Shown: positions 4,759-21,341, counted from the stretch's first letter. The stretch: DNA of 64,000 nucleotides from Thermoplasmata archaeon (GCA_034667725.1 JAXDQS010000001.1:1-64000), one strand, 5' to 3'. A program made the numbers and translations. The notes: generated by a model not told the origin, from the letters alone.

Positions 4759-5358
4759 TCACCAGGGCACTTTCTTCAACCCCAGCCAGAACCCGATCCG
4801 GTTCACCAACAAATGCAGCGCCGGCGTCAGGACCAGGATGGTCGTCAGCACCAGCCAGTCGTCCAGGAGCGCGTGCCAGACCCAGCCTTCGGCCAAGAGG
4901 GGCGACCCAAGGACGAACGCCACCAGGGCGAACACCACGAAGTCGAGCTGGTCGAACGGGAACCAGGGGCCGCCGGACGCGATGCGCCGCCGCCGCTTGA
5001 AGTAGGACTTGACGGCGTCGCCGACCAGGGCCATCGCGCCCACGATGCCGCCAAAGAGGGCGATGCTCCACCACGGCGTCCCGAGGCTTGCGCCGTAGTC
5101 CCAGCCGTGCATGAAGGCCCAGTGCTGGGCGATCGCCGCTACGGCGACGGCCGTGAGGGCGCCGAATAGGGCGCCGCCGGCCAGCCCGCGCCAGGTCTTG
5201 CCGGCGCCGAGGACGCGGTGGCCGTCGGCGTGGACCCGGCCGCCGTCGATGGGCGCCGTCCATTGGGGGACGAGCTTGGCGACGAACACGGGCGCCATGT
5301 TGGCGAGGTAGGCGGGCAGGAACAGCCACAAGGCGTGGAGGATGCCTGCCCCTTCCAT
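4759..5358 (-). CDS. carS: CDP-archaeol synthase (CDP-2,3-bis-O-geranylgeranyl-sn-glycerol synthase)
   Basis: PAYLANMAPVF, PIDGG...LGAGKTWRG, GDAVKSYFKRR, FDQLDF, C-terminal LGLKKVPW. Confidence 0.93.
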   Translation of the reverse strand: MEGAGILHALWLFLPAYLANMAPVFVAKLVPQWTAPIDGGRVHADGHRVLGAGKTWRGLAGGALFGALTAVAVAAIAQHWAFMHGWDYGASLGTPWWSIALFGGIVGAMALVGDAVKSYFKRRRRIASGGPWFPFDQLDFVVFALVAFVLGSPLLAEGWVWHALLDDWLVLTTILVLTPALHLLVNRIGFWLGLKKVPW

Positions 5359-5393: not shown

Positions 5394-5951
5394 CTACAGC
5401 CGCACGACGCCGTCGCACAGGGGCCGGACGGCGTCCAGCAGGGAGTCGCCGGCTTGCTTCTCCACCAGGACCAAGGCGGCGGGGATCTGCTGCATCCGGA
5501 GGCGGTTGACGAGGTTGTGCGTCAGCTCGGCCACGGCGGCGACACCGTTGTAGACCGTGAGCGTCGAGAGCGAGTCCACCACCAGGAAGCGTTCGCCCTG
5601 CGGCTGGCGGCGCAGCAGTTGTTCGGTGCGCATGGCGGTCTTCTCCAGCATGGTCGGGCTCTCGATGTAGAGCACGCCGGGCTCGGGCGGCGGCATGATG
5701 CCGGTCAGGCCGGAGACGCAGTCGACGTACTGGAGCGCGTCGCGGGGCACGCCGTCCTCGGCGAAGGCGTCGCGCAGGAAGTGGTGCGGCCGGTTGGCCG
5801 TCAGGTAGACGCCTTTGGGGAAGCGCTGCGTCAGCAGGCGCACGATGCGGTGGACCGCCTGCCGGTAGTCGGTGCTCGAGGTCACGACCAGCAGGATGCC
5901 GTCGTCGGGCCACTCCTGCAGCACCGGGCGCTGGGCCTGCATCGTGGTCAA
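5394..5951 (-). CDS. Degenerate KaiC/RAD55 (RecA-fold) pseudo-ATPase, DUF835/DUF7504-like
   Basis: VYLTANRP, YVDCVS, Walker-B-like LVVDSLSTL, CDGVVRL; no Walker A. Alternative ATG at 5942. Confidence 0.75.
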   Translation of the reverse strand: MTTMQAQRPVLQEWPDDGILLVVTSSTDYRQAVHRIVRLLTQRFPKGVYLTANRPHHFLRDAFAEDGVPRDALQYVDCVSGLTGIMPPPEPGVLYIESPTMLEKTAMRTEQLLRRQPQGERFLVVDSLSTLTVYNGVAAVAELTHNLVNRLRMQQIPAALVLVEKQAGDSLLDAVRPLCDGVVRL

Positions 5952-7006
5952 GCTCGCACCCCCGGGACCACGGGGACGATGCGGAAGCGGCAGTCAGCGT
6001 CCCCCACGGTCAGGCATGAGGCGCGCTCGACCCCCATAAGTCCTTGCGTGGCCACAGCCCCACGCAGCACGCCATGGCACAGCCGGCAGGCGTTGAGGCG
6101 GCGTTCGCGCACCGCGGCCTCGTCGCCATGCTTCGCGATGGCGCGGATCGGGCCGGCGAACGGGCACGCCGTCACGCGCAGCACTGGCAACGGGGACGCC
6201 TCGACCGTGCGGCCGCCCGCCTCCAGGATGGAGCGGGCCAGCTTGTACGGGCTGTCGGCGGGGAACATGGGGGCGAGCTTGACGCCCACCTTGCTGGCGC
6301 AGTCGTCGAGCAGCCTGTGCGCGGCCTCGGGCGGCATCACCTCGGTGAGGTAGTCGACGAACGCCACCAGGATCGCCATGTAGAAGTGGAGCGAGTCGGC
6401 CTCGCGCTGCTCGGGCGTCGGGGTCGCGAGCACTTGGCCGCCAGGGTCGGTGGCTTGGTCGCGCGGGGCGTCGCTGGTGACCAGGAAGTCGCACGAGCGG
6501 TCGCCGAACAGGATGCGGGAGCGCAGCTGGACTTGGTAGCCGGGCTGGCCGGGCTGCAGCAGGCCGTTGACCGAGCCTTGGTAGACGGCGCGGTGGAGCT
6601 GGCAGATCATGGCCCGCCCGAACGGGGTCTTGTGCTGGAACGCGGCCGCGAACTCGCAGGCGTGCAGCCGCTTGGTGGCCTGCTCCGGGCCGGCCTCGGC
6701 CATGGTGAACGGCGTGCTGGTGAGGGCGGAGACGAAGTTGAGCGGGGCCAAGGCGGACACGGCGCCGCGGGTGGCGTCGGTCTCGACGTAGTGGCGGCGG
6801 ATGTGGCGGGCGTTCTTGGCACCGAACCGCTCCAGGTAGGCGGGCATGGTGCCGAGCATGACGCCTTCGCCCAGCGCCTCGAAGCTGGCGTCCATGACGG
6901 TCGCGATCAGCTCCAGCACCGTGCGGGCGATGGCGGGCGGGGTGCCGGCGACGGTTGCCGCGGCCGAAGCTGCCGGAGTGGCTTCGGTCCCCTGTTGCCC
7001 CTCCAT
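5948..7006 (-). CDS. Tandem V4R/MetOD1-like Cys-rich domain protein
   Basis: Two copies of C(E/P)F...C..(H/C)...GDxxCxF: ACEF..ICQLH..GDRSCDF and ACPF..ACRLC..GDADCRF. Confidence 0.7.
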   Translation of the reverse strand: MEGQQGTEATPAASAAATVAGTPPAIARTVLELIATVMDASFEALGEGVMLGTMPAYLERFGAKNARHIRRHYVETDATRGAVSALAPLNFVSALTSTPFTMAEAGPEQATKRLHACEFAAAFQHKTPFGRAMICQLHRAVYQGSVNGLLQPGQPGYQVQLRSRILFGDRSCDFLVTSDAPRDQATDPGGQVLATPTPEQREADSLHFYMAILVAFVDYLTEVMPPEAAHRLLDDCASKVGVKLAPMFPADSPYKLARSILEAGGRTVEASPLPVLRVTACPFAGPIRAIAKHGDEAAVRERRLNACRLCHGVLRGAVATQGLMGVERASCLTVGDADCRFRIVPVVPGVRA

Positions 7007-7026
7007 ATGGCCGCCACTCCCACCCG

Positions 7027-7056
7027 CTATAAAAGGGACCTGCGACTTTTATATAT
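7027..7056. promoter_or_regulatory. Back-to-back TATA boxes (divergent promoter)
   Basis: TATAAAA at 7028-7034 (reads TTTTATAG on the minus strand, about 22-28 nt before ATG 7006) and TTTTATATAT at 7047-7056 upstream of GTG 7095; AT-rich island in GC-rich DNA. Confidence 0.75.
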
Positions 7057-7094
7057 CTAAGTCTCAGGCTCGACGCGCGTCGGCAGGTCTTGGA

Positions 7095-7622
7095 GTGAAG
7101 CGGATTCGGGTGTTGGTCCCTCCCCACGAGGGGCACGTCGAGGCGGTGGCCGCCCACGTGCGCCAGCTCCAGTCCGACGGGCATGCCGTGCTCTACCTCG
7201 CCGCCGACCGGCCCTATCCCACGCTCGAGAAGGCGTTCCAGCGCGCCAACGTGGACTCCTCCCAGGTGTTCTTCCTCGACGTCGTGAGCTGCCTCGACGG
7301 CCGCGTGCCCGCCAACCCGCCGCGCAACGCCCTGTTCCTGCAATCCCCGACGATGCTGGAGATGATGGCCATGCGCATCGAGCAGGTCGCCGGCCGCCTC
7401 GGCGCCAAGGCCTGCGTCGTCATCGACTCCCTCAACACGCTGGCGCTCTACAACGGCATCCCGCCGGTGCAGGAGTTCAGCCACTACCTCGCCAACCGCC
7501 TCCGCACGCAAGGCATCCCCGGGGACTTCGTGATCCGCGACACCCAGGAAGGCCGCCTGCTGCACGAGCGCGTGTCCGGCTTCACCGACGAACGCATCGA
7601 GATCGAACGAGGCCTTGCATGA
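7095..7622 (+). CDS. Degenerate KaiC/RAD55 pseudo-ATPase, paralogue of 5394-5951
   Basis: LYLAADRP, FLDVVS, SPTMLE, VVIDSLNTLALYNG, LANRLR; no Walker A. Confidence 0.75.
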   Translation: MKRIRVLVPPHEGHVEAVAAHVRQLQSDGHAVLYLAADRPYPTLEKAFQRANVDSSQVFFLDVVSCLDGRVPANPPRNALFLQSPTMLEMMAMRIEQVAGRLGAKACVVIDSLNTLALYNGIPPVQEFSHYLANRLRTQGIPGDFVIRDTQEGRLLHERVSGFTDERIEIERGLA

Positions 7623-8941
7623 ACCGAACGACCCTCCTCGCGACCGTGGCCCTGCTGCTTGTGCCCGTGCCCGGCGCCGCCCAAGAGCCCGAAGTCCGCT
7701 TCGTGGTCCTCGACCAGTTCGCCGACATCCAGGTCGCCGGCCTCGGCCTCCAGGCTTGCACCGGCGCCTCGCTGGAGCGCGACCTGGAGCGCCAGGCCGT
7801 CCATTTCCGCGAGGAGGACCCCGCGCCGCAGCAGGTCCCCGTGTTCACCCCAGGCTACGCCACGCGCGGCTGCGGCAACGTCACGCTGGAGATGCCCATC
7901 CCCGCCGGCACCGACCACCTGCACGTCCGCTTCCTGCAAGACCGCGTCATCAGCCTGTTCAGCGTCTTCCAGGAGGAGGTCAGCGCCGGCATCGACTTCG
8001 AGCAGACCGTCCAGGTCGCCCTCGACGGCGCCGAGCAGCCGCCCCTCACGCTGTTCCCCACCAACTCCACCGGCGCCCAGTCGACCATCTTCGAGGTCCC
8101 CGCCGTCCGGCCCGAAGGTGCCGGCACGCTGCGCGTCCGTTGGTCGATGGCCGATGCCGGCCAGGTGTTCGCGCCCGGGTTCCCGACCGGCAGTTCCTAC
8201 GCCTCGACCCTCGAGGGCATCATCGTCGAGTTCTCCGGCATCCCGCTTGCGGCCAACACCGCGCTGCGCGACGGCTCGGGCGGCGACCTCCAGGTGGACG
8301 AGCTGCGCGTCGCCGCCACCGTCACGGCCCGCTCCGAGGAGGGCTACCGCAACGACCTGCGCTTCCGCCTCGCCCCCGGCTGGGAGTTCATCCATGTGGA
8401 GGCGCCGGGCGGCGCGGTCCTCGACCAGGCGGGCACCCGGGTCGCCGCCGGCGAGGTCGGCTACGACCGCTTCAAGCCGCTGCGCGAGCAGGGCCAGGAC
8501 TACGTCCAGGTCACGGTCGCGGAGCCCATCCTGACCCGCCACGGCGACGGCCAGTACACGCTCGTGGTGCGGCGCGTGAGCGACCTCGACATCAACGAGG
8601 CGATGCTGCCCGTGGCCGTCGCGCTGCTGCTGTCGCCGCTGCCGTTCGCCCTGGTCGCCTACCTGCGCACCCGCGCCTACGAGCGCGAGGCGTTCGGCAG
8701 CTTCCGCCGCAGCGCCCGCTACCTCCGCCTCGCCCTGGTCGGCGCCCTCGTGTACTACCTCGTCGTGGTCGGCAGCGCGTTCGCCGGCAGCCGCCTGGCC
8801 CTCATGGCCGTCCTGCCGCTCTCGACCGAGGCCATCCTGCTCTACGTCCAGGTGCTGGTCGCCATCGCCGCGTTCATGGCCCTGGCGCTCGTGGCCCGCG
8901 AGCTCTACCGCATCACCCAGCCCAAGCCCGTGGAGCCCTGA
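7619..8941 (+). CDS. Membrane protein: signal peptide, ~300-aa extracellular beta-rich region, three C-terminal TM helices
   Basis: MNRTTLLATVALLLVPVPGAA signal; three hydrophobic C-terminal segments; ATGA overlap with upstream gene. Confidence 0.75.
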   Translation: MNRTTLLATVALLLVPVPGAAQEPEVRFVVLDQFADIQVAGLGLQACTGASLERDLERQAVHFREEDPAPQQVPVFTPGYATRGCGNVTLEMPIPAGTDHLHVRFLQDRVISLFSVFQEEVSAGIDFEQTVQVALDGAEQPPLTLFPTNSTGAQSTIFEVPAVRPEGAGTLRVRWSMADAGQVFAPGFPTGSSYASTLEGIIVEFSGIPLAANTALRDGSGGDLQVDELRVAATVTARSEEGYRNDLRFRLAPGWEFIHVEAPGGAVLDQAGTRVAAGEVGYDRFKPLREQGQDYVQVTVAEPILTRHGDGQYTLVVRRVSDLDINEAMLPVAVALLLSPLPFALVAYLRTRAYEREAFGSFRRSARYLRLALVGALVYYLVVVGSAFAGSRLALMAVLPLSTEAILLYVQVLVAIAAFMALALVARELYRITQPKPVEP

Positions 8942-8944
8942 GCC

Positions 8945-10198
8945 GTGCCAGAGGACGACGCGGCGCGCTACCGCAGCCTGTTCGAGCGCGTGCCGGTCGG
9001 CCTGTTCCGCACCCGCCCGGACGGCACCATCGAGGACGCCAACCCGGCCCTGGTGCGGATGCTCGGGCACGCCAACGAGGACGCGCTGCGCGCCGTCAAC
9101 CTGCGCGACCTCTACGTCGACCCCGACGACCGCCGCGTCCTGCTGGAGCGGCTGGAGCGCGAGGGGGCCGCCAGCTACGAGCTGCGGATGCGCCGCGCCG
9201 ACGGCGCCATCGTGTGGGTGCGCGGCAGCAGCCGCCTGGTGCGCGACGCCGACGGCAACCGCGTGCACTACGAGGGCCACCTTGAGGACATCACCGCGGA
9301 GCGCATCGCCGAGCAGGGCCTGCGTCTCGTGCAGGAGATGGCGTTGGAGCTCGAAGGCGCCGGCGACTTCCCCGCCGTCCTCGGCGCCAGCCTCCGCAAG
9401 ATCTGCCGCGCCGCCGGCTGGAGCTACGGCGAGGCCTGGGTCCCGAACCCCGAGGCCACCACGCTGGTCGCCAGCGAGTCGTGGTTCACCACCTCGGAGA
9501 AGGCGAAGAAGTTCCGCCACCTCAGCGCCAAGCTGGAGTTCCCCCCCGGCGTCGGCGCGGCCGGCCTCGCCTGGCAGACCCGCAAGACGGTGTGGTGGCC
9601 CGACGCCGTCCACGAGCCGCAGTTCCAGCGCGCCGCCGCCGCCAAGGCCGCCGGCTTCCGCGCGCTGTGCGCCGTCCCGGTGCTCAACGACGGCCGCCTG
9701 GTCGCCGTGCTGGTGTTCCTCACCGACGTGGCCCGCGACGCCGAGCGCTGGGTGCGCGTCGTCGAGTCCGTCGCCCGCCAGCTCGGCACCGTCATGGGCC
9801 GCCGCGTGGCGGAGGACGTGCTGCGCCGCCAGACCCGCGTGCTGGAGGCGCACCTGGAAGCGTCGCCCGACGGCGTGCTGGTGGTCTCGGACGCCGGCGA
9901 GGTGGTCGCCTGCAACCGCCGCCTGCTGGAGATGTGCGAGGTCGCGATGCTCGACGGCGCCACCTCGCCCTCGCGCTGGACCGGCCAGGCGCTGCTTGCC
10001 CTCGTGGACGACCCGGCCCGCTTCCAGGCCCGCGTCCGCTTCCTGTACGAGGACCCCGGCGAGGAGGACGAGCTGGTGGTGTCCGGGCGGCGGTTCCGGC
10101 GCACCGCGGTGCCCGTGCGCGACCTCGACGACTTCAGCTGGGGCCGCATCTGGACGTTCCGCGAGCTGCCGCCACGGAAGCCCCGTCCGGGACGCTAG
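8945..10198 (+). CDS. PAS-GAF-PAS sensor protein without kinase or output domain
   Basis: YRSLFERVPVG..DANPALVRMLG..RRADGAIVWV..EDIT (PAS/PAC); GLAWQTRK..CAVPVLNDGRLVAVL (GAF); LEASPDGVLVV..NRRL..GRIWTFRE (PAS). Confidence 0.88.
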   Translation: MPEDDAARYRSLFERVPVGLFRTRPDGTIEDANPALVRMLGHANEDALRAVNLRDLYVDPDDRRVLLERLEREGAASYELRMRRADGAIVWVRGSSRLVRDADGNRVHYEGHLEDITAERIAEQGLRLVQEMALELEGAGDFPAVLGASLRKICRAAGWSYGEAWVPNPEATTLVASESWFTTSEKAKKFRHLSAKLEFPPGVGAAGLAWQTRKTVWWPDAVHEPQFQRAAAAKAAGFRALCAVPVLNDGRLVAVLVFLTDVARDAERWVRVVESVARQLGTVMGRRVAEDVLRRQTRVLEAHLEASPDGVLVVSDAGEVVACNRRLLEMCEVAMLDGATSPSRWTGQALLALVDDPARFQARVRFLYEDPGEEDELVVSGRRFRRTAVPVRDLDDFSWGRIWTFRELPPRKPRPGR

Positions 10199-11001
10199 AC
10201 GATCCGCTCCAGCGTCTCCAGGTGGAACCCTTGCGGCGTGATGTCGTACGTCGAGACGCCGATGCCGTAGCTGCGGTTCTTGACTTTCTTCACCATCAAG
10301 AAGCGCTCGAACGTGGTGCCCTTGCGGGTGACCTCCAGCTCGATCAGGCAGTCCGCCAGCAGCTCCAGCCGCCGCTCCACCGTCGGCCCGTGGGCACCCT
10401 TGGACAGCACCAGCAGCAGAAGGCCGGCTTGCCGCGAGTTGGCGGCCTTGAGCGCCGTCAGCACCGACACGACGCGCTCGACGGGGTAGAGGTTGAGGAA
10501 GAAGTCGATGGAGTGGACGATGACCCGGTTGGGCGGGCGCAGCCGCGAGTACGGGTCCAGCAGCCGGCCGAGGTAGTCGGTGCCGGCGTCCGGGTCGTCG
10601 CCCGTGTGCTGGCGCGAGGGGCGCAGCAGGTCGAAGCTGGAGGTGCCCTCGACCAATTCGCGCGGGTCGAAGGTGCGCCGCGGCCCGCCTGCGGCCGAGC
10701 CGTCGCGGGCCTTCTGCTGCGCCTCCAGCATCGCGTCGGCGAACTGGGTCTGCAGGTCGACGACCTGGACGCGGCTGAAGTCCCAGCGGGCCTCGGCGAC
10801 CATGGCCTCGACCTCGCCGACCGACTCGTCGGTGGTGACGTAGATGACCTGCTCGTCGTGGCCGGCGGCGAACTGCTTGGCGAAGATCTCGGCGCCGGAG
10901 CCGGCGGGGGCCAAGAGCAGGGTGGTGAAGCCCCTGGGGAGCCCGCCCTTGAGGAACGCGTCCAGGGGCTCGATGCCGGTGCTGACCTTGTCGGCGGCCA
11001 T
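10195..11001 (-). CDS. KaiC/RAD55-family protein with inactivated Walker A
   Basis: STGIEPLDAFLKGGLPRG; P-loop APAGSGAE lacks KT; VTTDES; VIVHSID; ADCLIEL. Confidence 0.85.
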   Translation of the reverse strand: MAADKVSTGIEPLDAFLKGGLPRGFTTLLLAPAGSGAEIFAKQFAAGHDEQVIYVTTDESVGEVEAMVAEARWDFSRVQVVDLQTQFADAMLEAQQKARDGSAAGGPRRTFDPRELVEGTSSFDLLRPSRQHTGDDPDAGTDYLGRLLDPYSRLRPPNRVIVHSIDFFLNLYPVERVVSVLTALKAANSRQAGLLLLVLSKGAHGPTVERRLELLADCLIELEVTRKGTTFERFLMVKKVKNRSYGIGVSTYDITPQGFHLETLERIV

Positions 11002-11005
11002 CTGG

Positions 11006-11749
11006 TCACGCGCTCGTGTCGCCGAACTTCTTCAGGAGCGGGGCCAGGCTGATGCCGAACTCGGAGATGTCCATCATGAACTTGGCCCGGCTGTGGTCGG
11101 TGCCGCGCATCTTCATCACCTGGAGGGTGCGCACCAGGTCGTTGTGGCGCTCCATCTCGGACAGCAGGATGATGCCGTCGGCGATGAACTCCTCGACGCC
11201 GAACATGCTGTAGCGCAGCTCGCGCGGCGGGGTCTCGGAGGTCAGGAAGGTGGTGCACTCCAGCTGCGACAGGGCGAGGCCGAGGCGGAACACGAAGTCG
11301 CGGATGCGGCCTTGGTCCTCCAGGCGCTGGCAGATGGCCGTGATCGAGTCGATGACCAGCCGCTTGACCTTGTACTGCTTGACGATGCCCGCGATGGCCT
11401 CCACCAGCGCCTCGCCGTTCTGGAGGCGGTACTCGTTGACCGTCACCATCCCCATCTTGAGGAGCATGGCGCGCACGTCCACGAACCGGATGAGGCCCTG
11501 CGTCAGGAACTTGGGGTCGAGGAACTGGTACTCCTTGGCGTTGCGCTCCAGGACGTTGACCGGCTCGGTCACGGACAAGAACAGGCCCTGCTCGCCGCGC
11601 TCGGCGCCGTGGGCGAGGAACTCCAGGGTCAGGGTGGTCTTGCCCATGCCCGGGCCGCCCGCCAGCAGCACCACGTTCCCCAGCGGCAGCCCGCCGCGCA
11701 GGATCTGGTCCAGCTCGGTGATGCCGGTCTCGCAGCGTGCGATGGCCAT
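11006..11749 (-). CDS. Single-domain KaiC/RAD55-family ATPase (intact motifs)
   Basis: TGITELDQILRGGLP, GGPGMGKT, RLVIDSIT, GVEEFIADGIILL, KMRGTDH. Confidence 0.92.
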   Translation of the reverse strand: MAIARCETGITELDQILRGGLPLGNVVLLAGGPGMGKTTLTLEFLAHGAERGEQGLFLSVTEPVNVLERNAKEYQFLDPKFLTQGLIRFVDVRAMLLKMGMVTVNEYRLQNGEALVEAIAGIVKQYKVKRLVIDSITAICQRLEDQGRIRDFVFRLGLALSQLECTTFLTSETPPRELRYSMFGVEEFIADGIILLSEMERHNDLVRTLQVMKMRGTDHSRAKFMMDISEFGISLAPLLKKFGDTSA

Positions 11750-11773: not shown

Positions 11774-11781
11774 CTTATAAG
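11774..11781 (-). promoter_or_regulatory. TATA box for the KaiC-like gene pair (probably leaderless)
   Basis: CTTATAAG about 25-32 nt upstream of ATG 11749. Confidence 0.55.
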
Positions 11782-11788
11782 AAGCGAA

Positions 11789-13114
11789 TCAGGAGACCTG
11801 GACCGTTCCCTCGATGAGCCGCAGGTGCAGCGACCACAGGCTGACGCCGCCGGACGAGGCCAGCGTCAGCGTGGCCATGTCCCCGCTGCCGCCGACGGTC
11901 GCCGCCGCGCTTGCCCCCGCGACCAGCACCTGCTCCGCCAGGAACGACCGCCAGGCGGCGGCGTTCGGTGTCGTGAGCGTGAAGGTGGCGCCGGTGGCGG
12001 TGAGCACGACGTCCGAGCTTTCGGTGTGGCCGACCGTGATGGTCGCCGAGCGCGCGCCGGCAAGGGCGCCGCTGCCGTCGAGCTGCACCAGCGTCCATTG
12101 CAGGAAGCCGTCGCTGCCGTCGACGTCGAGCGCGAACGCCGGCTCGGCCACGACCGCCTGCCGCTCGCCCTGGGAGGCGACCACGGCGCCGCCCTCGAAC
12201 GACAGCGACTCGTCCACGAAGCTTTGGTACGACGGGTCGTACTCCAGCCGGCCGCCGGACTGGGTGAAGCTGTAGCTGCCCGACTGGCCGGTGCCGGTGC
12301 TCTGCATCCAGCCGTCCGTGTTCTCCCACACCGCGGAGTAGGTGCCGACGACCACCGCGCCGACGCCGCCGTCGGTGAACGTCAGGGTCAGGGGCGGCTC
12401 CAGCCGGGCCACCGCCGCCGCGAAGGTGTAGGCGGCCCCCGTCACGTCGATGCGGTAGAGCGGCAGGTCGTTGTTGATGTCGCACAGCAGCGGCTGGTAG
12501 GTCGTGCCCGAGGAGGTCGTGGTCTCCAGCCGCAACTCCGCCGTGTTGTCGCACGTGGTCGAGCCCGACTGGCCGGAGTGCAGCAGCCGCGCCGTCACCG
12601 TGCTGGCGCCGTCGGTGGCCGCCACCTGCACGAAGGCGTGGTCATTGTTGCCGACCACGGAGCTGGTGAGGCCGAGGACGATGCCGTGGACGCTCGCGAC
12701 CTCGGCGTGGACGTTGCCGGCCACGTCCATGTCGGGCGCGCCCTGCACGACGTTGTCCACCAGCCGCAGCACCGGGGAGGTGAAGCTCGCCGCCGCCCCG
12801 AAGCCGTCGTCGTCCTTGAGGTACGCGACCTCGGCGCTGGCGGGCGTCTGCTGGAGCATCGGCACGGTCGGCACGTCCATCGAGACGGACGCCGTGACCG
12901 GGCCGGCGTCGTCGCGCGACGACAGCGCCTCCAGGCTGGCGCGCACGCCCTGGAGCTGCCGGGCGACCTCGCGGTGGTGGTTGTGCTCGTTGTCCGCCTC
13001 CCACTCGGGCAGGGTCTGGATGGCGTAGAGCGCGAACACGGTGGTGAACAGGCCGAACAGCAGCACGGCGGCCACGACGCTGGAGACCCCCTCGTCGCCG
13101 GCGCGGCGGGTCAT
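11789..13114 (-). CDS. Large pilin-like protein (class III signal peptide), probable minor pilin
   Basis: MTRRAGDEG|VSSVVAAVLLFGLF..P.W...E..H; beta-rich body; ATGA overlap with upstream gene. Confidence 0.8.
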   Translation of the reverse strand: MTRRAGDEGVSSVVAAVLLFGLFTTVFALYAIQTLPEWEADNEHNHHREVARQLQGVRASLEALSSRDDAGPVTASVSMDVPTVPMLQQTPASAEVAYLKDDDGFGAAASFTSPVLRLVDNVVQGAPDMDVAGNVHAEVASVHGIVLGLTSSVVGNNDHAFVQVAATDGASTVTARLLHSGQSGSTTCDNTAELRLETTTSSGTTYQPLLCDINNDLPLYRIDVTGAAYTFAAAVARLEPPLTLTFTDGGVGAVVVGTYSAVWENTDGWMQSTGTGQSGSYSFTQSGGRLEYDPSYQSFVDESLSFEGGAVVASQGERQAVVAEPAFALDVDGSDGFLQWTLVQLDGSGALAGARSATITVGHTESSDVVLTATGATFTLTTPNAAAWRSFLAEQVLVAGASAAATVGGSGDMATLTLASSGGVSLWSLHLRLIEGTVQVS

Positions 13115-15129
13115 GTCGTCACCACGCGGGCATATTCGAGCGACAAGACGCCTTGCGTCGTGCCGGTGGGGGTCGCGTCCACGAACCGGATGCGCGGGGT
13201 GCCGCCGTTCTGCTCGGCGGCCGTGAGGACGTAGCTCCACTGGGCGAGGCTGGCGGCGCTCAGGGTCGAGCCGCGCGTCGTCCACGCCGCGCCGTCCCAG
13301 ACCTGGACGCTGAAGGTGTCGCCCGTGGTCTTGTAGCGCAGCCCAAGCGTCTGCGTGGTGCCCGACGGCAGCGTGCCGAAGTCGAGCTGGATGCTCATGC
13401 TCTGGGTCGCCGCGTAGGTGACCTCGGCCCAGGCGCGGTCGATGCGCCAGGTGCCGTCGGTGCCGGAGTTGCGGTCGGAGGCGACCTGCAAGACCAAGGC
13501 GTTGACGTCGGTCCAGCTCCACGAGCCGCCGCCAGGCCGCAGCGCGGTCACGGTGTAGCTGAGGGTCGTGTCCGAGGCGGCGCCCGTCAGGCGCGCGGAC
13601 GCGGTGCTGCAAGTGGCCGCGATGCAGGCGCGCAGGGTGAAGCCGTCGTTGCTGAAGCCCACGATCGAGACCTCGGCCTTCAGGACGACGGCCGTGATCG
13701 AGCCGGGGCTGCCGGACTGGTCCGCGAGGGTGTAGGCGACGGTGGCGCCATTGGTCGTCGTGGTCGCGTAGGCGTTGTCCGAGGCGAAGCCGTTGCTGGC
13801 GCTCGACCACGAGCCCGCGGAGCTGACGCCGCTGGCCGCCAGGGTCGCCGTCCCGCCGGCGCCGGAGGCCCCCTCGGCCAGGGTCGCGACGGCGTCGCTG
13901 TCGCTGGCGGACTGGAGGTTGGCGAAGCTGCCCACCGTGCCGGTCGTCGCCGTGCTGGACGAAGGGTAGGTCGGCGGGATGGTCTGGATGACGTCGGACT
14001 GGACGTCGGCCACGCCCGTCTGGGTCTGGCCGGAGGCGTCCTTCTGGCCGGTGAGGTAGTGCTCCAGCGTCTTGCCGGAGTTGCTGCCCCAGGATTGGCT
14101 CGGGATGGTGCCCCGCCACGTCGAGGTCCCGGTGCGCGTCATGGCGCCGGTGCTCGTGTACGCCGGGTTGGTGCCGCCGTTGATGCGGAAGTGGAGGGTC
14201 GGGTTGGTGGCCTGGTCCACGCCGTAGCAGTCGTCGGTGAGGACCGCGGTGACCGTGACCGCGCCGGTGGTGGTGATGGCGACGTCCGCCGGGTCCTTCG
14301 TCCAGGCCTGCACCGTCGGCGGCGCCGCGTCGGAGGGGCAGACGTCGTCGATCAAGTCCGACCGCACGCCGGCCACGCTGGCCTGCACGTTGGAGCCGAG
14401 GTCGCGCTGGCCGACGACGTAGTATTGCAGGGTCTTGCCTTTGGCGCTCAGGCCAGGGCTCGGGATGGTGCCTTCCCAGGTGTCGCCCGAGAGCTGGGCC
14501 ATCGCGCCCGCGTCGGTGTAGGCGGGCGCGGAGCCGCCGTTGAGGCGCCACCAGAGGTGCGGCGCGACCGACGCGTCGACGCCGTAGCAGCCGTCCGCGA
14601 AGGTGGCCGTCACCGTCACTGCGCCCGAGGAGGGCGCCGCCAGGTCGGTGGGCGACTGGACCCAGGTGCTGACGGTCGGCGGGTCGAGGTCGCCCGGGCA
14701 CGGGTCGGCGCCGCCGCGGGCGCCTTGCGCGACCAGCAGGAAGCCGTCGTTGACGAGCACCGCGCCGCGCACGTCCTGCGCCGACGAGTACTTGCAGCTG
14801 GCGTCGTCGCCTTGGATGCAGAGAATCTCGCCCAGCTCCCAGAAGGCGCCGACCGCCGCGGCGCCGGGCAGCGACGACAGCAGCACTTCTTTCTCGATGC
14901 CGCCGACGTTGACCAGCACGCGGCTGTTGCCGAGGGCCACGTCCTCGCCGCCCTTGTGCACCAGGAGCAGGGAGCCGTCGCCTTGCAGGGCGCCCACGTC
15001 GGCCCGCGGCTGGGTGGGCTGCGACTCGAAGTAGGACAGGACGCCGATGCTGACCGCCGTGAAGACCGCCACGGTGATGCCGAGCATCAGCACGGTGCCG
15101 ACGACGCTCGAGACGGCCTCCTCGTCCAT
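13111..15129 (-). CDS. Large type IV pilin/adhesin with tandem ~120-aa repeats
   Basis: MDEEA|VSSVVGTVLMLGITV, LVHKGGED pilin motif; two repeats CP.D..PPTV..CYGVD..W.GTIPS; Thr/Ser-rich. Confidence 0.85.
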   Translation of the reverse strand: MDEEAVSSVVGTVLMLGITVAVFTAVSIGVLSYFESQPTQPRADVGALQGDGSLLLVHKGGEDVALGNSRVLVNVGGIEKEVLLSSLPGAAAVGAFWELGEILCIQGDDASCKYSSAQDVRGAVLVNDGFLLVAQGARGGADPCPGDLDPPTVSTWVQSPTDLAAPSSGAVTVTATFADGCYGVDASVAPHLWWRLNGGSAPAYTDAGAMAQLSGDTWEGTIPSPGLSAKGKTLQYYVVGQRDLGSNVQASVAGVRSDLIDDVCPSDAAPPTVQAWTKDPADVAITTTGAVTVTAVLTDDCYGVDQATNPTLHFRINGGTNPAYTSTGAMTRTGTSTWRGTIPSQSWGSNSGKTLEHYLTGQKDASGQTQTGVADVQSDVIQTIPPTYPSSSTATTGTVGSFANLQSASDSDAVATLAEGASGAGGTATLAASGVSSAGSWSSASNGFASDNAYATTTTNGATVAYTLADQSGSPGSITAVVLKAEVSIVGFSNDGFTLRACIAATCSTASARLTGAASDTTLSYTVTALRPGGGSWSWTDVNALVLQVASDRNSGTDGTWRIDRAWAEVTYAATQSMSIQLDFGTLPSGTTQTLGLRYKTTGDTFSVQVWDGAAWTTRGSTLSAASLAQWSYVLTAAEQNGGTPRIRFVDATPTGTTQGVLSLEYARVVTT

Positions 15130-15227
15130 GGTCCTGCGTTTTTGACCCCCCTCCGGGGGAAAAGGGTTGCCGGTGGGGCCGTAGGCCATCCCCAAACGTC
15201 AAGACAGACCCGGTCTTGGAACGCTCA

Positions 15228-16178
15228 ATGGAGGAGCCGGAGGAGCGCACCACCGAGGAACTGGTGGCCGCGTTCCGGGCCCGCAAGAAGGCGCAGGTGC
15301 AGGCCGCGCGCGGGACGGCCCCCGAGCCCGAGCCTGCCCCCGCGCCCACGCCGGAGCCGGTCCCGGCGGCGCTTGCCCCCATCCCGCCGCCTCCGCCCGC
15401 CCGCGCCTTGGGCGAAATCCGCCCCGGCACGCCGCCGGGCAGCCCGCTCACCGTCCAGTCGCTCCGCCTGTCCGAGCGGCTGCTGGCCGACCGCCGCATC
15501 GCGGTGCGCGGCCTGCGCCAAGGCCGGATCGCAGGCGCCGCCCTGCTCCTCACGGGCCTCGCGCTCCTTCTGGTCGAGCGCTACTACGCATCGCGCGGCC
15601 CCGGCGTCGTCGTGCTCGCCGGCGTCCCGCTGCTGCCGACCGCCACGGCCCTTGCGCTGCTCGGCGCCGCGCTCATGGTCCTGTTCACCTTTGTCCCGAC
15701 GCGGCCGTCGCTGCCCGTCCGCCTGGCCGCCAGCCAAGGCGAGGAGTGGGACCGCGTCCAAGGCGAGCTGAAGGCCGTCGGCCTGCGCGTCCCCATCGGC
15801 TGGGCCGTCGTCGTCCTCGGCGTCCTGCTCGCGGCCGCCGCCCTCACCGTGTGGGCCGGCAAGCCTGCCAGCCGCTACGGCGCCGGCCTCGGGCTGCTGG
15901 TGGCTGCCGCCGGCCTCGGGCTGCTGCTGCACGCCTTGGCCAAGCGGGCCGCGCTGCACCGCCTCTACGTCCAGACGCTCGTGCTGTCCAGCCTGGAGCG
16001 CACCGGCCTCGGCCCGCAGCAGGCCCGCGACGGCCGGGTCGCGCCGGTGCTGCAAGCCCTCGACCAGCTCCTGGGCGCGCTGCCCGAGTCCACCGTCCGC
16101 CGGTTCCTCGCCACGCCCGAGGCCGAGCGCTACCTGGAGCTGATGGACGAGCTGGCGCAGGACGGCAAGGATGGCTGA
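15228..16178 (+). CDS. Four-TM membrane protein, first gene of the pilus assembly operon
   Basis: Pro-rich N-terminus, four hydrophobic segments, C-terminal helical LDQLLGALPESTVRRF; overlaps the ATPase start. Confidence 0.7.
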   Translation: MEEPEERTTEELVAAFRARKKAQVQAARGTAPEPEPAPAPTPEPVPAALAPIPPPPPARALGEIRPGTPPGSPLTVQSLRLSERLLADRRIAVRGLRQGRIAGAALLLTGLALLLVERYYASRGPGVVVLAGVPLLPTATALALLGAALMVLFTFVPTRPSLPVRLAASQGEEWDRVQGELKAVGLRVPIGWAVVVLGVLLAAAALTVWAGKPASRYGAGLGLLVAAAGLGLLLHALAKRAALHRLYVQTLVLSSLERTGLGPQQARDGRVAPVLQALDQLLGALPESTVRRFLATPEAERYLELMDELAQDGKDG

Positions 16179-18123
16179 CGAGGACGGCGAGCCCCAGCCC
16201 CACTCCCTGGCCGAGCGGCTGCGGCAGCTCAAGATGCGCGAGGCCAGCGAAGGCGACGAGGACGCCGTCCGCCGCGCCCTCCAGCACAAGGCCACCCTGT
16301 CCGAGCGCATGAAGGGGATGCTCGAGGAGCCTGCCGCCGTCGAGCCCGAGGAGGCGCGCTCGCTGGAGGCGCTGGCCGCGCGCACGCCGGCCGCGCCCAC
16401 GGTCGCGCAGCCAGGGCCCGTGGCGATGCCGGACGACGCCGGCGCCCTGCCGGCGGCCGACGAGGACGAGGCCGCGCGCTTCTCGCAGCGCCTGCGGGGG
16501 CTGCGCGCCGAGGAGCAGGCCGCCCAGCCGCCGACCCTGGCGGCGGAGGAGCGCAAGCGGCTGCTGCAATGGTTCCTCGGGCGCGAGACCCAGCAGGAGG
16601 GCAGCGGCTCGATCACGGCCATCCCGCCCTACGACGAGGCGCAGTGGGAGGAGGCCGAGTTCTACCCCATCGAGCCGCCGTTCAGCTTCGTCCGCATCCT
16701 CCGGAACCGCATCACGGGCGAGTTCCTCTACCAGGCCATCGAGCCGGAGCTGTCCGCGACCGAGCGGCAGGTGCTGGAGTTCGTGCAGGACGCCTTGGTG
16801 CGCGGCCTCAACGTGGACCCGGTGACCCTCAAGCAGGCGGCGCGCGAGCAGTACCTCCTGGAGGCGGTGCGGCAGATCCTGCGCGACTACCGCATCCGCA
16901 TCGACGGGGTGGGGCAGGCCCGCATCGAGTACTATGTCCGCCGCGACTTCATCGGCCTCGGCCCGATCCACCCGGTCATGGTGGACCCGCGCATCGAGGA
17001 CATCTCGTGCGACGGCCCCGGCGAGGGCCTGTTCATCTTCCACCGCAACTACGAGTCGATCCCCTCCAACATCCGCTTCCCCTCCGACGGCGCCCTCGAC
17101 GCCTTCGTCATCCGGCTGGCGCAGCGCTCGGGCAAGGCCATCTCGATCTCCGACCCCATCCTGGACGCGGCGCTTCCGGACGGCTCCCGCCTGCAAGCCA
17201 CGCTGGGCCGCGAGGTCACCCAGAACGGCAGCACCTTCACCATCCGGCGCTTCAAGCCCGACCCGTTCACCCCCATCGACCTGCTGCGGTTCGGCACCAT
17301 GTCGGTCGAGATGCTGGCGTGGTTCTGGATGACCGTGCAGAAGGGCCACTCGATGATCTTCTCGGGCGGCACCGCCTCCGGCAAGACCACGGCCCTGAAC
17401 GCCATCGCGCAGTTCATCCCGCCCGCGGCCAAGGTGGTCTCGATCGAGGACACCCGCGAGGTCAACCTCCCCCACAAGAACTGGATCAAGGCGGTCACGC
17501 GCGCGGGCGCCACCGGCGAGGGCGTCGGCGAGATCGGGATGTTCGAGCTCTTGAAGGCGAGCCTGCGCCAACGCCCCGAGTTCATCCTGGTGGGCGAGGT
17601 GCGCGGCATCGAGGCCACCGTCGCGTTCCAGGCCATGGCCACCGGCCACACCGTGTTCTCGACGATGCACGCCGACTCCGCCCGCAGCGTCGTCTACCGC
17701 CTGGAGAACGAGCCCATCAACATCCCGCGCCTGGTGCTGCAGGCCCTCGACATCATCGCCATCCAGGCCCAGGCCCGCGTCCACGGCAAGCGCGTCCGCC
17801 GCATCAAGGAGGTCGTCGAGCTGGTCGGCATGGACCCCGCCACCAAGGAGCTCCTGACCAACACCGTGTTCAAGTGGGACCAGGCCGCCGACCGGTTCGA
17901 GTTCAGCGGCCGCAGCTACCTCCTCGACCGCATGGCCAACGACCGCAACTGGACGCGCGAGCAGATGCAGGCCGAGTTCCGCCGCCGCCAGCGCGTCCTG
18001 CAGCGCCTGATGGAGCGCACCGGCGTCAGCGTCGAGCAGCTGACGGAGCTCATCAAGGCCTACTACCGCGACCCCGACGGGCTGGAGGCCCTCCTCATGG
18101 CCGAGGGGGCGCCGGCCGCGTGA
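16171..18123 (+). CDS. Type IV pilus assembly ATPase (archaeal PilB/FlaI, VirB11 family)
   Basis: IEDISCDG, FTIRRF, GGTASGKTT, SIEDTRE, LRQRPEFILVGEVRG, AMATGH, STMHA. Confidence 0.95.
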   Translation: MADEDGEPQPHSLAERLRQLKMREASEGDEDAVRRALQHKATLSERMKGMLEEPAAVEPEEARSLEALAARTPAAPTVAQPGPVAMPDDAGALPAADEDEAARFSQRLRGLRAEEQAAQPPTLAAEERKRLLQWFLGRETQQEGSGSITAIPPYDEAQWEEAEFYPIEPPFSFVRILRNRITGEFLYQAIEPELSATERQVLEFVQDALVRGLNVDPVTLKQAAREQYLLEAVRQILRDYRIRIDGVGQARIEYYVRRDFIGLGPIHPVMVDPRIEDISCDGPGEGLFIFHRNYESIPSNIRFPSDGALDAFVIRLAQRSGKAISISDPILDAALPDGSRLQATLGREVTQNGSTFTIRRFKPDPFTPIDLLRFGTMSVEMLAWFWMTVQKGHSMIFSGGTASGKTTALNAIAQFIPPAAKVVSIEDTREVNLPHKNWIKAVTRAGATGEGVGEIGMFELLKASLRQRPEFILVGEVRGIEATVAFQAMATGHTVFSTMHADSARSVVYRLENEPINIPRLVLQALDIIAIQAQARVHGKRVRRIKEVVELVGMDPATKELLTNTVFKWDQAADRFEFSGRSYLLDRMANDRNWTREQMQAEFRRRQRVLQRLMERTGVSVEQLTELIKAYYRDPDGLEALLMAEGAPAA

Positions 18124-19028
18124 AGGCGAAGCCGAAGCCGGAGCCGCGCGACGGCACGCCGCCGCCCACCGAGGCGACCCGCGTCTTCCTGCGCTGGTTC
18201 GGCGGCCTCGCGGGCAAGCACCTCGCCAAGCACCCGCAGCTCGGCGTCAAGCTGCTGAAGGCCCGCAACCCGCTGGTGCCGCGCGCCTACCTCGCCGCCA
18301 CCTACGGCCACATGGCCACCGCGTTCGCCGGCGGCCTGGTGCCGCTGCTGCTCTATGCCCTCGTGTCCGGCGGCCGGATGGACGTCCGCCTCGCCGTCCC
18401 GTTCGCGGCCCTCCCGTTCCTGCTGGCCATCATGGTGTACAGCTTCGACCTGCTGCGCCCCGACCTGGAGATCACGAGCCGCAAGCGCAACCTGGAGCAG
18501 AGCCTGCCGTACGCGCTCAACTTCATGGCGAGCATGGCCGCGGCCGGCGTCGTGGCGGTGGAGATCTTCGGCTCGCTGGCCCAGCAGAAAGTGTACGGCG
18601 AGGTCGCGAAGGAGGCCGCGTGGATCTACCGCGACGTCCGCCTGTTCAGCAAGGACCTGGTCACCGTCCTCCAGGAGGCCGCGCGCCGCAGCCCGAGCCA
18701 GCAGTTCGAGGAGTTCCTGCAAGGCAGCGTCAACACCATCACCTCCGGCGGCGACCTCAAGCTCTACCTGCTTGCCAAGTCGGAGCAGTTCACCCAGGAG
18801 AACCGCCGCAAGCAGAAGGCGTTCCTGGAGTCGCTCGGCGTCATGGCCGAGTCCTACGTCGTCGTCGCCGCCGCGGCCCCGCTGTTCTTGATCGTCATCC
18901 TCAGCGTCATGGGCCTCTTGTCCAAAGGCGTCGACCCGACCCTGATGCTCAACGTCCTCATCCTGGTGGCGCTGCCGACCATCCACGCCTCGTTCTCGTT
19001 CGTCCTGCGCAGCCTGAGGCCCGACTGA
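18120..19028 (+). CDS. Pilus platform membrane protein (T2SS F / TadC / FlaJ-like)
   Basis: LPYALNFMASMAAAG, YGEVAKE, SPSQQFEEFL..SGGDL, LGVMAESY; GTGA overlap. Confidence 0.9.
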   Translation: MKAKPKPEPRDGTPPPTEATRVFLRWFGGLAGKHLAKHPQLGVKLLKARNPLVPRAYLAATYGHMATAFAGGLVPLLLYALVSGGRMDVRLAVPFAALPFLLAIMVYSFDLLRPDLEITSRKRNLEQSLPYALNFMASMAAAGVVAVEIFGSLAQQKVYGEVAKEAAWIYRDVRLFSKDLVTVLQEAARRSPSQQFEEFLQGSVNTITSGGDLKLYLLAKSEQFTQENRRKQKAFLESLGVMAESYVVVAAAAPLFLIVILSVMGLLSKGVDPTLMLNVLILVALPTIHASFSFVLRSLRPD

Positions 19029-20830: not shown

Positions 20831-20885
20831 CCTCGGGACGGGCGGTGAACCTTATGGCCCCCGCCCGGAGTGGGATGGCGTGGCC

Positions 20886-21341
20886 ATGGACCCCAAGGAG
20901 GGCAGGAAGGCGGTCCTGCTTGCCAGCGGCCTGGCCGCCCTCCTGGCGGGCGCCGGCCTGCTGCTGTACGGCCTGGCCCCCGCCGAGGCCATGCTCGACC
21001 TGTTCGGGGACTTCAAGAACGTCCAGCCCGACAGCATCCAGAACATGATGGACGAGCTGGGCGCCCGCGTCTGGTTGGACGCCCTCGGCGCCGCCCTCCT
21101 GGTCGCCGGCATCGTCGTGGCCAAGGTCGCCCTCAAGCCGCCCAAGCCCAAGTCCATCGAGGAGCAGGTCAACGAGGCGGTCGAGGCGCGCCTGGCCGCC
21201 ATGCCCAAGCCCACCCCGGTGGACGTTCCCCCGCCCGCCCCAAAAGCGCCGCCCTTGCCCCCTGCCGGCCCCCGTTGCCCGAAGTGCGGCCGCCTCAAGA
21301 TCGCCGGCGGCAAGCTGTGCCGCCAGTGCGACATGGCCTGA
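20886..21341 (+). CDS. Two-TM membrane protein with C-terminal zinc ribbon
   Basis: Two hydrophobic segments, Pro-rich linker, CPKCG...LCRQC. Confidence 0.7.
   Translation: MDPKEGRKAVLLASGLAALLAGAGLLLYGLAPAEAMLDLFGDFKNVQPDSIQNMMDELGARVWLDALGAALLVAGIVVAKVALKPPKPKSIEEQVNEAVEARLAAMPKPTPVDVPPPAPKAPPLPPAGPRCPKCGRLKIAGGKLCRQCDMA

Follow-up and report, generated by a model that had tools for sequence, protein, structure and literature searches.

A KaiC-based locus beside type IV pilus genes of an uncultured Thermoplasmatota archaeon as a likely elaboration of a phylum-wide gene trio

In archaea, KaiC-like ATPases have been proposed as the principal native hubs of signalling, and almost none of them has a known partner, input or output. 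Makarova, Galperin and Koonin are said to have proposed, in mBio in 2017, that archaeal KaiC-like ATPases with inactivated KaiC partners act as hubs of signal transduction. Elp4/5/6 of Elongator and the Rad51-paralogue complexes are hetero-oligomers of RecA-fold paralogues, some of which are inactive. Here, a locus of seven genes is described at positions 5394–11749 of a 64,000-nucleotide stretch of DNA from an uncultured Thermoplasmatota archaeon (GCA_034667725.1, JAXDQS010000001.1:1-64000). This whole stretch, hereafter the window, opens contig 1 of a genome of 2.32 Mb with 72% GC and 90% completeness. The genes, numbered g1 to g7 by position, encode an intact KaiC, an inactivated KaiC (KaiC'), two DUF7504 proteins and three sensor-type proteins, and pilus genes lie beside them. 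KaiC families were described in or near archaeal type IV pilus (T4P) operons, where the second component was mostly not predictable (Makarova et al. 2016, PMC4858521). Also, the KaiC-like protein CirA represses motility in Haloferax (PMC10983859).

Like the described T4P loci, the locus has KaiC-like genes, predicted regulators, in or beside operons of pilins, ATPase and TadC. Unlike those cases, it comes with three pseudo-ATPase partners and three proteins of sensor type. The KaiC pair resembles ArlH in its single-domain KaiC fold and in its position beside a FlaI-family ATPase and a platform protein. However, ArlH acts as one protein, whereas an active and a dead KaiC stand here together with putative adaptors. 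As in Elp4/5/6 and the Rad51-paralogue complexes, RecA/KaiC-fold paralogues are kept together and most of them lack ATPase motifs; common descent with these complexes is not evident beyond the superfamily. The hub proposal reportedly involved a single-domain KaiC, inactivated paralogues and PAS, GAF and V4R-type sensors without a histidine kinase, and the locus has the same composition. It differs from that proposal in a defined set of three paralogues across one phylum and in a duplicated member, each copy of which overlaps a different sensor-type gene. The locus fits the hub idea and adds a concrete, unusually complete wiring diagram. It is a variant of the KaiC/inactivated-KaiC signalling theme already proposed for archaea.

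The comparison of gene orders indicated that the seven genes are a lineage-specific elaboration of an ancient, phylum-wide trio of KaiC, DUF7504 and KaiC' genes and not one fixed module. What is new here is a rearrangement, in which the DUF7504 gene is out of the operon and doubled, each copy overlapping a different gene. The PAS-GAF gene (g5) and the V4R-type gene (g2) are variable accessories.

The KaiC trio across the phylum

KaiC, DUF7504 and KaiC' genes lie in one order and on one strand in 55 of the 63 loci sampled across Thermoplasmatota, and three of the other eight loci are cut by a contig end. Of the 197 genomes of the class, 120 had a match to a KaiC' profile, in each case a single full-length one (96/108 in one family). 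In a phylum-wide sample, KaiC' was likewise single copy in 125 of 301 genomes, including 41/42 of one family and 8/8 of another. A scan of genome contigs with KaiC' as query gave only four loci. The 63 loci showed no constant neighbour of the trio other than its own genes. The KaiC and KaiC' of the window are orthologous to the trio genes, KaiC' being the one match per genome. Neither the window nor its family has the canonical order, as the DUF7504 genes there are 2.6–5 kb away from the KaiC pair, in separate units, and duplicated.

Gene calls were made by third-position GC (GC3), since a GC content of 72% fills every frame with open reading frames (ORFs); gene starts are predicted. GC3 values of 0.93–0.99 supported all of the seven ORFs. 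The identities given to the seven genes in a preliminary description of this DNA were confirmed by profile matches, motif states, AF2 folds and GC3. The genes sit on both strands and in at least three transcription units. On the minus strand, g2 (5948–7006, 352 aa) and g1 (5394–5951, 185 aa) overlap by 4 bp. On the plus strand, g3 (7095–7622, about 175 aa) and g4 (7619–8941, 440 aa) also overlap by 4 bp, and g5 (8945–10198, 417 aa) follows after 3 nt. It converges with a 4-bp overlap on KaiC' (g6, 10195–11001, minus strand, 268 aa), which is separated by 4 nt from KaiC (g7, 11006–11749, minus strand, 247 aa). The preliminary description had presented the seven genes as a self-contained module. 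This was not sustained, because the core is the trio, g2, g4 and g5 are variable, and there are at least three transcription units.

The 8-mers with at least seven A/T occur at just three sites between 4.5 and 21 kb (16.5 kb), and 31 such 8-mers are present window-wide. Two of the sites (7027–7035 and 7045–7060) lie inside the 88-bp spacer between g2 and g3 (7007–7094), a divergent promoter region with two TATA-like boxes. The third (11775–11783, minus strand) lies about 30 nt 5' of the KaiC ATG, within the 39-nt gap after the pilin 2 gene. We read the three A/T-rich sites as putative archaeal TATA boxes. If so read, the KaiC pair could be transcribed alone, though it is co-oriented with the pilins.

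The KaiC pair consists of a live and a dead member. Against PF06745, g7 scored 191 bits and g6 scored 68.4 bits (gathering cut-off 26.6). The Walker A motif of g7, GPGMGKT, is intact. Walker A, the TEP motif with the catalytic Glu (E62), D134 of Walker B and the KMRG motif are invariant in 15 orthologues, and KaiC orthologues are 47–77% identical. The g7 family profile matched the CI domain of the solved KaiC with an E value of 3e-46. In our own reading of the profile alignment, the positions of S431/T432 in the CII domain are occupied by the invariant E187/F188 in g7, as in CI. Because of the CI profile match and the Glu/Phe where CII has the phosphorylated Ser/Thr, g7 is best read as a CI-type ATPase and not a clock protein. 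It shares with cyanobacterial KaiC the CI similarity, the same Walker motifs and a KxRG motif, and is unlike it in having one domain instead of two, in E187/F188 and in the lack of KaiB in the genome. A circadian KaiC was rejected for g7 on the single domain of 247 aa, the absence of the CII phosphosites and the absence of KaiB; PF07689 was not found in the 90% complete genome. The scores of g7 against the circadian models were 120.6 bits for TIGR02655 (cut-off 546) and 162.8 bits for NF006799 (cut-off 408). ArlH/FlaH (NF052589) was also rejected, as the scores of g7 (34.6 bits) and g6 (28.6 bits) are far below the cut-off of 215, and contig 7 has a better candidate ArlH/ArlI pair.

The P-loop of g6 is GSGAE. 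Its Lys position is variable among orthologues. The Thr of Walker A is replaced by Glu in all 15 orthologues, and the 20 loci sampled from the rest of the phylum all have an acidic residue, Glu or Asp, at this position. Because this change is invariant or acidic across the phylum, the inactivation of KaiC' is old and maintained and not a recent decay. g6 also carries an insertion of about 60 aa. The Pfam family PAXNEB (Elp4) gave weak matches to both g6 and g7.

g1 and g3 are KaiC/RecA-fold paralogues that have no P-loop in the orthologue alignment. g1 is above the DUF7504 cut-off (PF24336, 36.8 bits against 27), and g3 is slightly below it (25.8 bits). With 39% identity to g1, g3 is by sequence a clear paralogue. 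The preliminary description was right on this identity and wrong on the start of g3, which it had placed at 6846; the orthologue alignment points to GTG 7095 as the likeliest start. The AF2 model of g1 has a pLDDT of 94, with PH0284 as a Foldseek match (E 2.7e-6, TMq 0.70), and it also resembles KaiC and FlaH (4yds) with TMq of 0.6–0.7. The hhalign comparison of the DUF7504 and KaiC alignments gave a probability of 62% only. A quick tree of DUF7504 with SH-aLRT support had three clades, the g3 type, the g1 type and the in-operon type; such a tree cannot tell which of g1 and g3 is the original copy.

Window proteins were placed by tblastn on loci fetched from relatives, several of which are fragmented assemblies. 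Scattering of the genes in relatives would, according to the preliminary description, have refuted it; the genes are not scattered, as the trio order holds in 55 of 63 loci and the local architecture is kept in nine family genomes and also on three metagenome contigs. Three same-genus genomes have, in this order, the helicase gene, DUF7504 gene(s), g4, g5, KaiC', KaiC, pilin 2, pilin 1, the membrane protein gene and the ATPase gene, and g2 is absent from these three. The divergent arrangement of g1, g2 and g3 recurs in five genomes of other genera of the family and on the three metagenome contigs. Of these five genomes, three also have g4 and four lack g5; g4 is present on one contig as well. 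In one genome, the KaiC slot holds a diverged KaiC whose P-loop is intact. In a second family of the order (three genomes), the arrangement TadC-ATPase / pilin 1-pilin 2-KaiC-KaiC' is kept, and DUF7504 was not seen near the KaiC pair in the fetched loci. None of the module genes is present in 9 of 12 same-genus genomes. In three of these nine that were inspected, other genes follow the helicase, and the module and the pilus genes are both missing from the site. The identity to same-genus orthologues falls from the core to the periphery: 75–77% for KaiC, 66–70% for KaiC', 52–61% for g3, 40–45% for g1, 35–37% for g4, 32–34% for g5 and 33–45% for the pilins.

Some observations were made at trio loci elsewhere. 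In another family of the class (loci L034–L073), the genes downstream on the same strand have, as seen by eye, a RadA-like N-terminus in 11 loci and PdxS/PdxT-like N-termini in 24 loci. A protein of about 114 aa comes directly after KaiC' in 18 of these loci. A single-contig genome of 1.8 Mb (L050) has KaiC' and a truncated DUF7504 and no KaiC, and the trio may be decaying in this lineage.

Sensor-type proteins beside the trio genes

g2 is a tandem V4R/Bet3-fold, MetOD1-like Cys protein. Its AF2 model (pLDDT 92.6) has two V4R/Bet3-fold domains. Structural matches were PoxR (Z 11.1), Bet3 (Z 11.0, residues 26–181) and DmpR (Z 10.4, residues 208–352); the annotated V4R protein MJ1460 gave Z 8.8, and Foldseek found Bet3 with E 1.6e-4. 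In sequence searches, g2 stayed below the Pfam cut-offs, with 14.1 bits each on V4R (PF02830, cut-off 31) and MetOD1 (PF18546, cut-off 23.8). At E values up to 1, MetOD1 was matched by 23 of 26 family members (best E 5e-5), ATC_hydrolase by 18/26 and V4R by 6/26, mostly below the cut-offs. The family is small, with just 30 homologues among 5.8 billion proteins and three loci in a metagenome scan with the alignment as query. Seven Cys residues (117, 135, 172, 281, 307, 310 and 339) are invariant in 26 homologues. MetOD1, V4R and ATC hydrolase have been treated as related domains that share a three-Cys cluster (Galperin et al. 2018, PMC5847659). By sequence position, g2 has a group of invariant Cys in each half, 117/135/172 and 281/307(310)/339, which may correspond to this cluster. 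Both halves also have the V4R/MetOD1/ATC-hydrolase/H-NOX sensor fold known from the phenol sensors PoxR, MopR and DmpR (Z 10–11). Unlike the PoxR, MopR, DmpR and MetOD1 systems, g2 is a tandem stand-alone protein without a REC, HTH or AAA+ output.

A gene with a possible similarity to g2 was found at the trio elsewhere. In 15–17 loci of another family, a fourth gene of about 188 aa lies between DUF7504 and KaiC'. A protein language model scored it as MetOD1/V4R-like (0.91–0.93), and three members have sub-threshold MetOD1 matches. An hhalign comparison between this family and that of g2 gave a probability of 1%, which is not significant, and a PDB profile search was empty. The fourth gene suggests that V4R-type partners recur with the trio.

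g4 is a membrane protein with a signal peptide, an ectodomain and three C-terminal transmembrane (TM) helices, as read by eye from the translation and the alignment. It had no Pfam or NCBIfam match, and the ectodomain belongs to no recognisable family. In eight orthologues, the conserved part is the TM region with a short predicted cytoplasmic loop, RAFEREAFGGFRRSARNLR, and the ectodomain is variable. An Atlas search gave a low-confidence model without feature matches, and a word-based homologue search found only three proteins. One same-genus genome (L012:9355-12080) has two tandem g4 copies, the second of which, as first delimited, has an in-frame stop.

g5 was described beforehand as a PAS-GAF-PAS protein without an output domain. 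The PAS and GAF domains are solid (PAS_9 57.6 bits, GAF_2 41.7 bits) and the lack of an output domain stood; the third PAS corresponds to a second PAS_8 stretch only and is weak. g5 is found at the same slot in three same-genus loci (32–34% identity) and at one contig edge, and it is absent from four loci of other genera.

The preliminary description had also stated that the window has no HisKA, HATPase, REC, KaiA or KaiB gene. This held for HATPase_c and REC, which had no match in contig 1:1-64000, and for KaiB in the genome; no separate search was made for KaiA and HisKA. A two-component system was rejected for the locus because the window has no HATPase_c or REC match. Elsewhere, the genome has 25 HATPase_c genes and 24 REC genes, and the REC nearest to the locus is at contig 1:82916. 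On contig 1, at about 278–283 kb, another gene with a strong KaiC-domain match (146 bits) comes right after a histidine kinase/receiver cluster. This KaiC is linked to two-component parts, in contrast to the KaiC of the window.

The two-component genes elsewhere bear on an alternative view of g5. It might stand outside the KaiC module and either work with a histidine kinase from among the 25 elsewhere in the genome or bind a ligand on its own. Its absence from four related loci that are otherwise complete agrees with this view, as do the supply of 25 HATPase_c and 24 REC genes and an identity of only 32–34% where it is present, against 65–77% for the KaiC pair. However, its slot after g4 and convergent on KaiC' is kept in three same-genus genomes and one of another genus, and in the window it starts 3 nt after g4. 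We consider such an outside role of g5 rather doubtful, though a serious alternative, and give the same weight to the idea that it is located here by chance.

Pilus genes beside the KaiC pair

As the preliminary description had noted, the KaiC pair lies directly downstream of two large pilin genes and is co-oriented with them. Pilin 2 (11789–13114, minus strand, 441 aa) is of the DUF7289 type (PF23960, 33.8 bits), and pilin 1 (13111–15129, minus strand, likely start ATG 15129) matches the archaeal Pilin_N (PF07790, 48.6 bits). Both have class III signal peptides in our own reading. A divergent operon for the pilus machinery is headed by a membrane protein gene (15216–16178, plus strand, GC3 0.94), which had no Pfam match and is kept beside the ATPase in relatives. 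The PilB/FlaI-family pilus assembly ATPase follows (16171–18123, plus strand, T2SSE 137 bits); it has about 160 aa of N-terminal extension. The platform protein corresponds to two consecutive genes of the TadC/T2SSF type. The first (18120–19028, plus strand, about 302 aa) was recognised by its frame-specific GC3 of 0.96–1.0 and its translation; its GTG start overlaps the ATPase stop, and it is hidden in a longer spurious ORF. The second (19028–20830, plus strand) matches T2SSF at 67 bits. Class III pilins, a FlaI/PilB-family ATPase and a TadC/T2SSF platform, by which an archaeal type IV pilus is recognised, are thus all present. The ATPase scored 420 bits against the ArlI model, below the cut-off of 550. 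The locus is therefore that of a pilus rather than of an archaellum, and we take it as an adhesion-type T4P locus.

Two further genes after TadC (20880–21341 and 21381–22649, both plus strand) had no significant Pfam family. Both products end in a CxxC...CxxC zinc-ribbon-like motif; one of them also has a membrane helix, and the other, of 422 aa, is Glu/Arg/Ala-rich and coiled-coil-like. On the other side of the locus are a CDP-archaeol synthase (CarS) gene at 4759–5358 and then a large SF1 helicase gene. The CarS gene (minus strand, 104 bits) was missed by the GC3 filter. A spacer of 35 nt, free of A/T-rich elements, separates it from g1 upstream, and the gene holds the slot beside the module in eight related loci, some without g1 and g2. 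Because its position is kept in these loci, CarS is probably a stable housekeeping anchor.

An archaellum-type locus on contig 7 has an ArlH-like gene (L031:9132-9863) of 205 bits (cut-off 215) beside an ArlI gene of 568 bits (cut-off 550). A pilus locus on contig 3 has a weak KaiC-like gene of 214 aa nearby (L030:9736-10380). A KaiC-fold neighbour is thus found at no fewer than three of the FlaI/PilB-family ATPase loci of the host, which has five such matches altogether.

Pilin 2 orthologues lie directly upstream of KaiC in all loci of the order that are long enough to show it. Outside the order, a pilin-like gene precedes the trio on the same strand in 8 of 20 loci from other classes; its product has 356–655 aa, and about 370 aa in seven of the eight. 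The pilin 2 HMM did not detect these genes, and a first, stricter pilin motif mostly caught an unrelated small membrane protein. Among 24 family relatives, a PilB orthologue (at least 63% identity) and KaiC' occur together in the same 10, and the 14 others have neither. By these gene orders, the link of the trio to a pilin-like gene is recurrent but not universal, and it is possibly ancestral.

Proposed mechanism and alternatives

For the understanding of the locus as a whole, we propose the following mechanism. KaiC and KaiC' would form a mixed oligomer. The pseudo-KaiC copies g1 and g3 would be adaptors, each of which docks one kind of sensor onto this hetero-oligomer. g1 would dock the V4R tandem g2, and g3 would dock g4 through its conserved cytoplasmic loop, and the PAS-GAF protein g5 could add a further, optional input. 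Depending on its nucleotide state, the KaiC oligomer would then set the activity or the assembly of the neighbouring PilB/TadC machinery, by analogy with the action of ArlH on ArlI. All of the protein contacts, the signal direction and the pilus as output in this scheme are what we infer. The KaiC-fold proteins probably belong to one functional system together with at least g2 and g4. That the pilus is the output of the module is a tentative proposal, which we hold with somewhat less than even confidence. The whole statement, a trio elaborated with sensor adaptors that act on the pilus machinery, stands about in the balance.

Several results weigh against this model. A pilin neighbour of the trio was found in none of the 43 loci of three other families of the class (f4, f8 and f9), nor in two complete low-GC genomes (L074 and L075). 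Considering these 43 loci, the pilus is therefore not the universal output of the trio. The pilin-like calls outside the order rest on an N-terminal class III-type motif only. A promoter element of its own, the putative TATA box, precedes the KaiC pair. g2, g4 and g5 are each missing from some loci that keep the remainder. The assignment of the fourth gene as V4R-type rests on a language-model lead and sub-threshold Pfam matches, and is a lead and not a finding. The co-occurrence of PilB and KaiC' is suggestive only and weak evidence of function, because the genes are physically linked and the genomes are related. The control of the pilus, as put forward in the preliminary description, was thus upheld in part: the pilin link in the order of the window and in 8 of 20 other-class loci and the co-occurrence with PilB argue for it, and the 0/43 loci of the same class and the separate TATA box argue against it.

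These results are the basis of the main alternative, that the trio is a general regulatory or ATPase complex of Thermoplasmatota whose output could be, for example, transcription, the envelope or DNA transactions. The pilin adjacency would then be an inherited gene order in a variable island of surface genes; the sensors would feed the trio, and the pilus would be a mere neighbour. This agrees with a phylum-wide trio whose neighbours change, with the TATA box of the KaiC pair, and with the presence or absence of the entire 5–26 kb stretch as a block within the genus. It also agrees with f4, f8 and f9, where no locus of 43 has an adjacent pilin, and where the neighbours are, by eye, PdxS/PdxT (24 loci) and a RadA-like gene (11 loci). 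On the other hand, the same-strand upstream pilin-like gene occurs in at least two deep lineages, the order of the window and the 8/20 loci of other classes. The presence and absence of the module match the PilB orthologue perfectly in the family, and KaiC-like genes also occur at the other T4P-type loci of the host, ArlH on contig 7 and a weak one on contig 3. On balance, we judge both the general complex and the merely inherited adjacency somewhat unlikely.

A stronger form of the proposed mechanism was also considered. The KaiC-fold paralogues could form an obligate hetero-oligomeric ring or stacked rings of one live and two or three dead subunit types, like Elp4/5/6. The dead subunits would dock the sensors, namely the V4R tandem, the membrane receptor and the PAS-GAF protein, and the whole would be a kinase-independent integrator that gates the type IV pilus ATPase. 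In this full form, the idea is unlikely. Very unlikely is the alternative that KaiC and KaiC' only serve the pilus motor structurally, as an ArlH-like ring beneath its ATPase that is needed for assembly and is no signalling hub, with the DUF7504, V4R, membrane and PAS-GAF genes as unrelated neighbours or a separate system: ArlH is KaiC-like, essential for archaellum assembly and binds ArlI (PMC4858521; 10.1101/2021.03.19.436134), and the KaiC pair is tied tightest to the pilins and is kept at the order level without a nearby DUF7504 in the fetched loci, but elsewhere the DUF7504 gene is flanked by those of KaiC and KaiC' in 55 of 63 loci and so belongs with them, the overlapping pairs g3-g4 and g2-g1 remain beside the KaiC pair in nine genomes, and the KaiC pair persists in lineages without adjacent pilus genes.

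The locus supplies explicit candidate pairs: the live and the dead KaiC, g1 with the V4R-type sensor, g3 with the membrane protein and the PAS-GAF protein, and the pilus ATPase. A result on a trio member would test pseudo-ATPase paralogues as adaptors. The trio is single copy and conserved in well over 100 Thermoplasmatota genomes, several of them closed single-contig genomes, and therefore one result would carry phylum-wide. If the trio is indeed a hetero-oligomeric integrator, it would be a distinct archaeal signalling machine, and the locus described here would be its most informative natural dissection.

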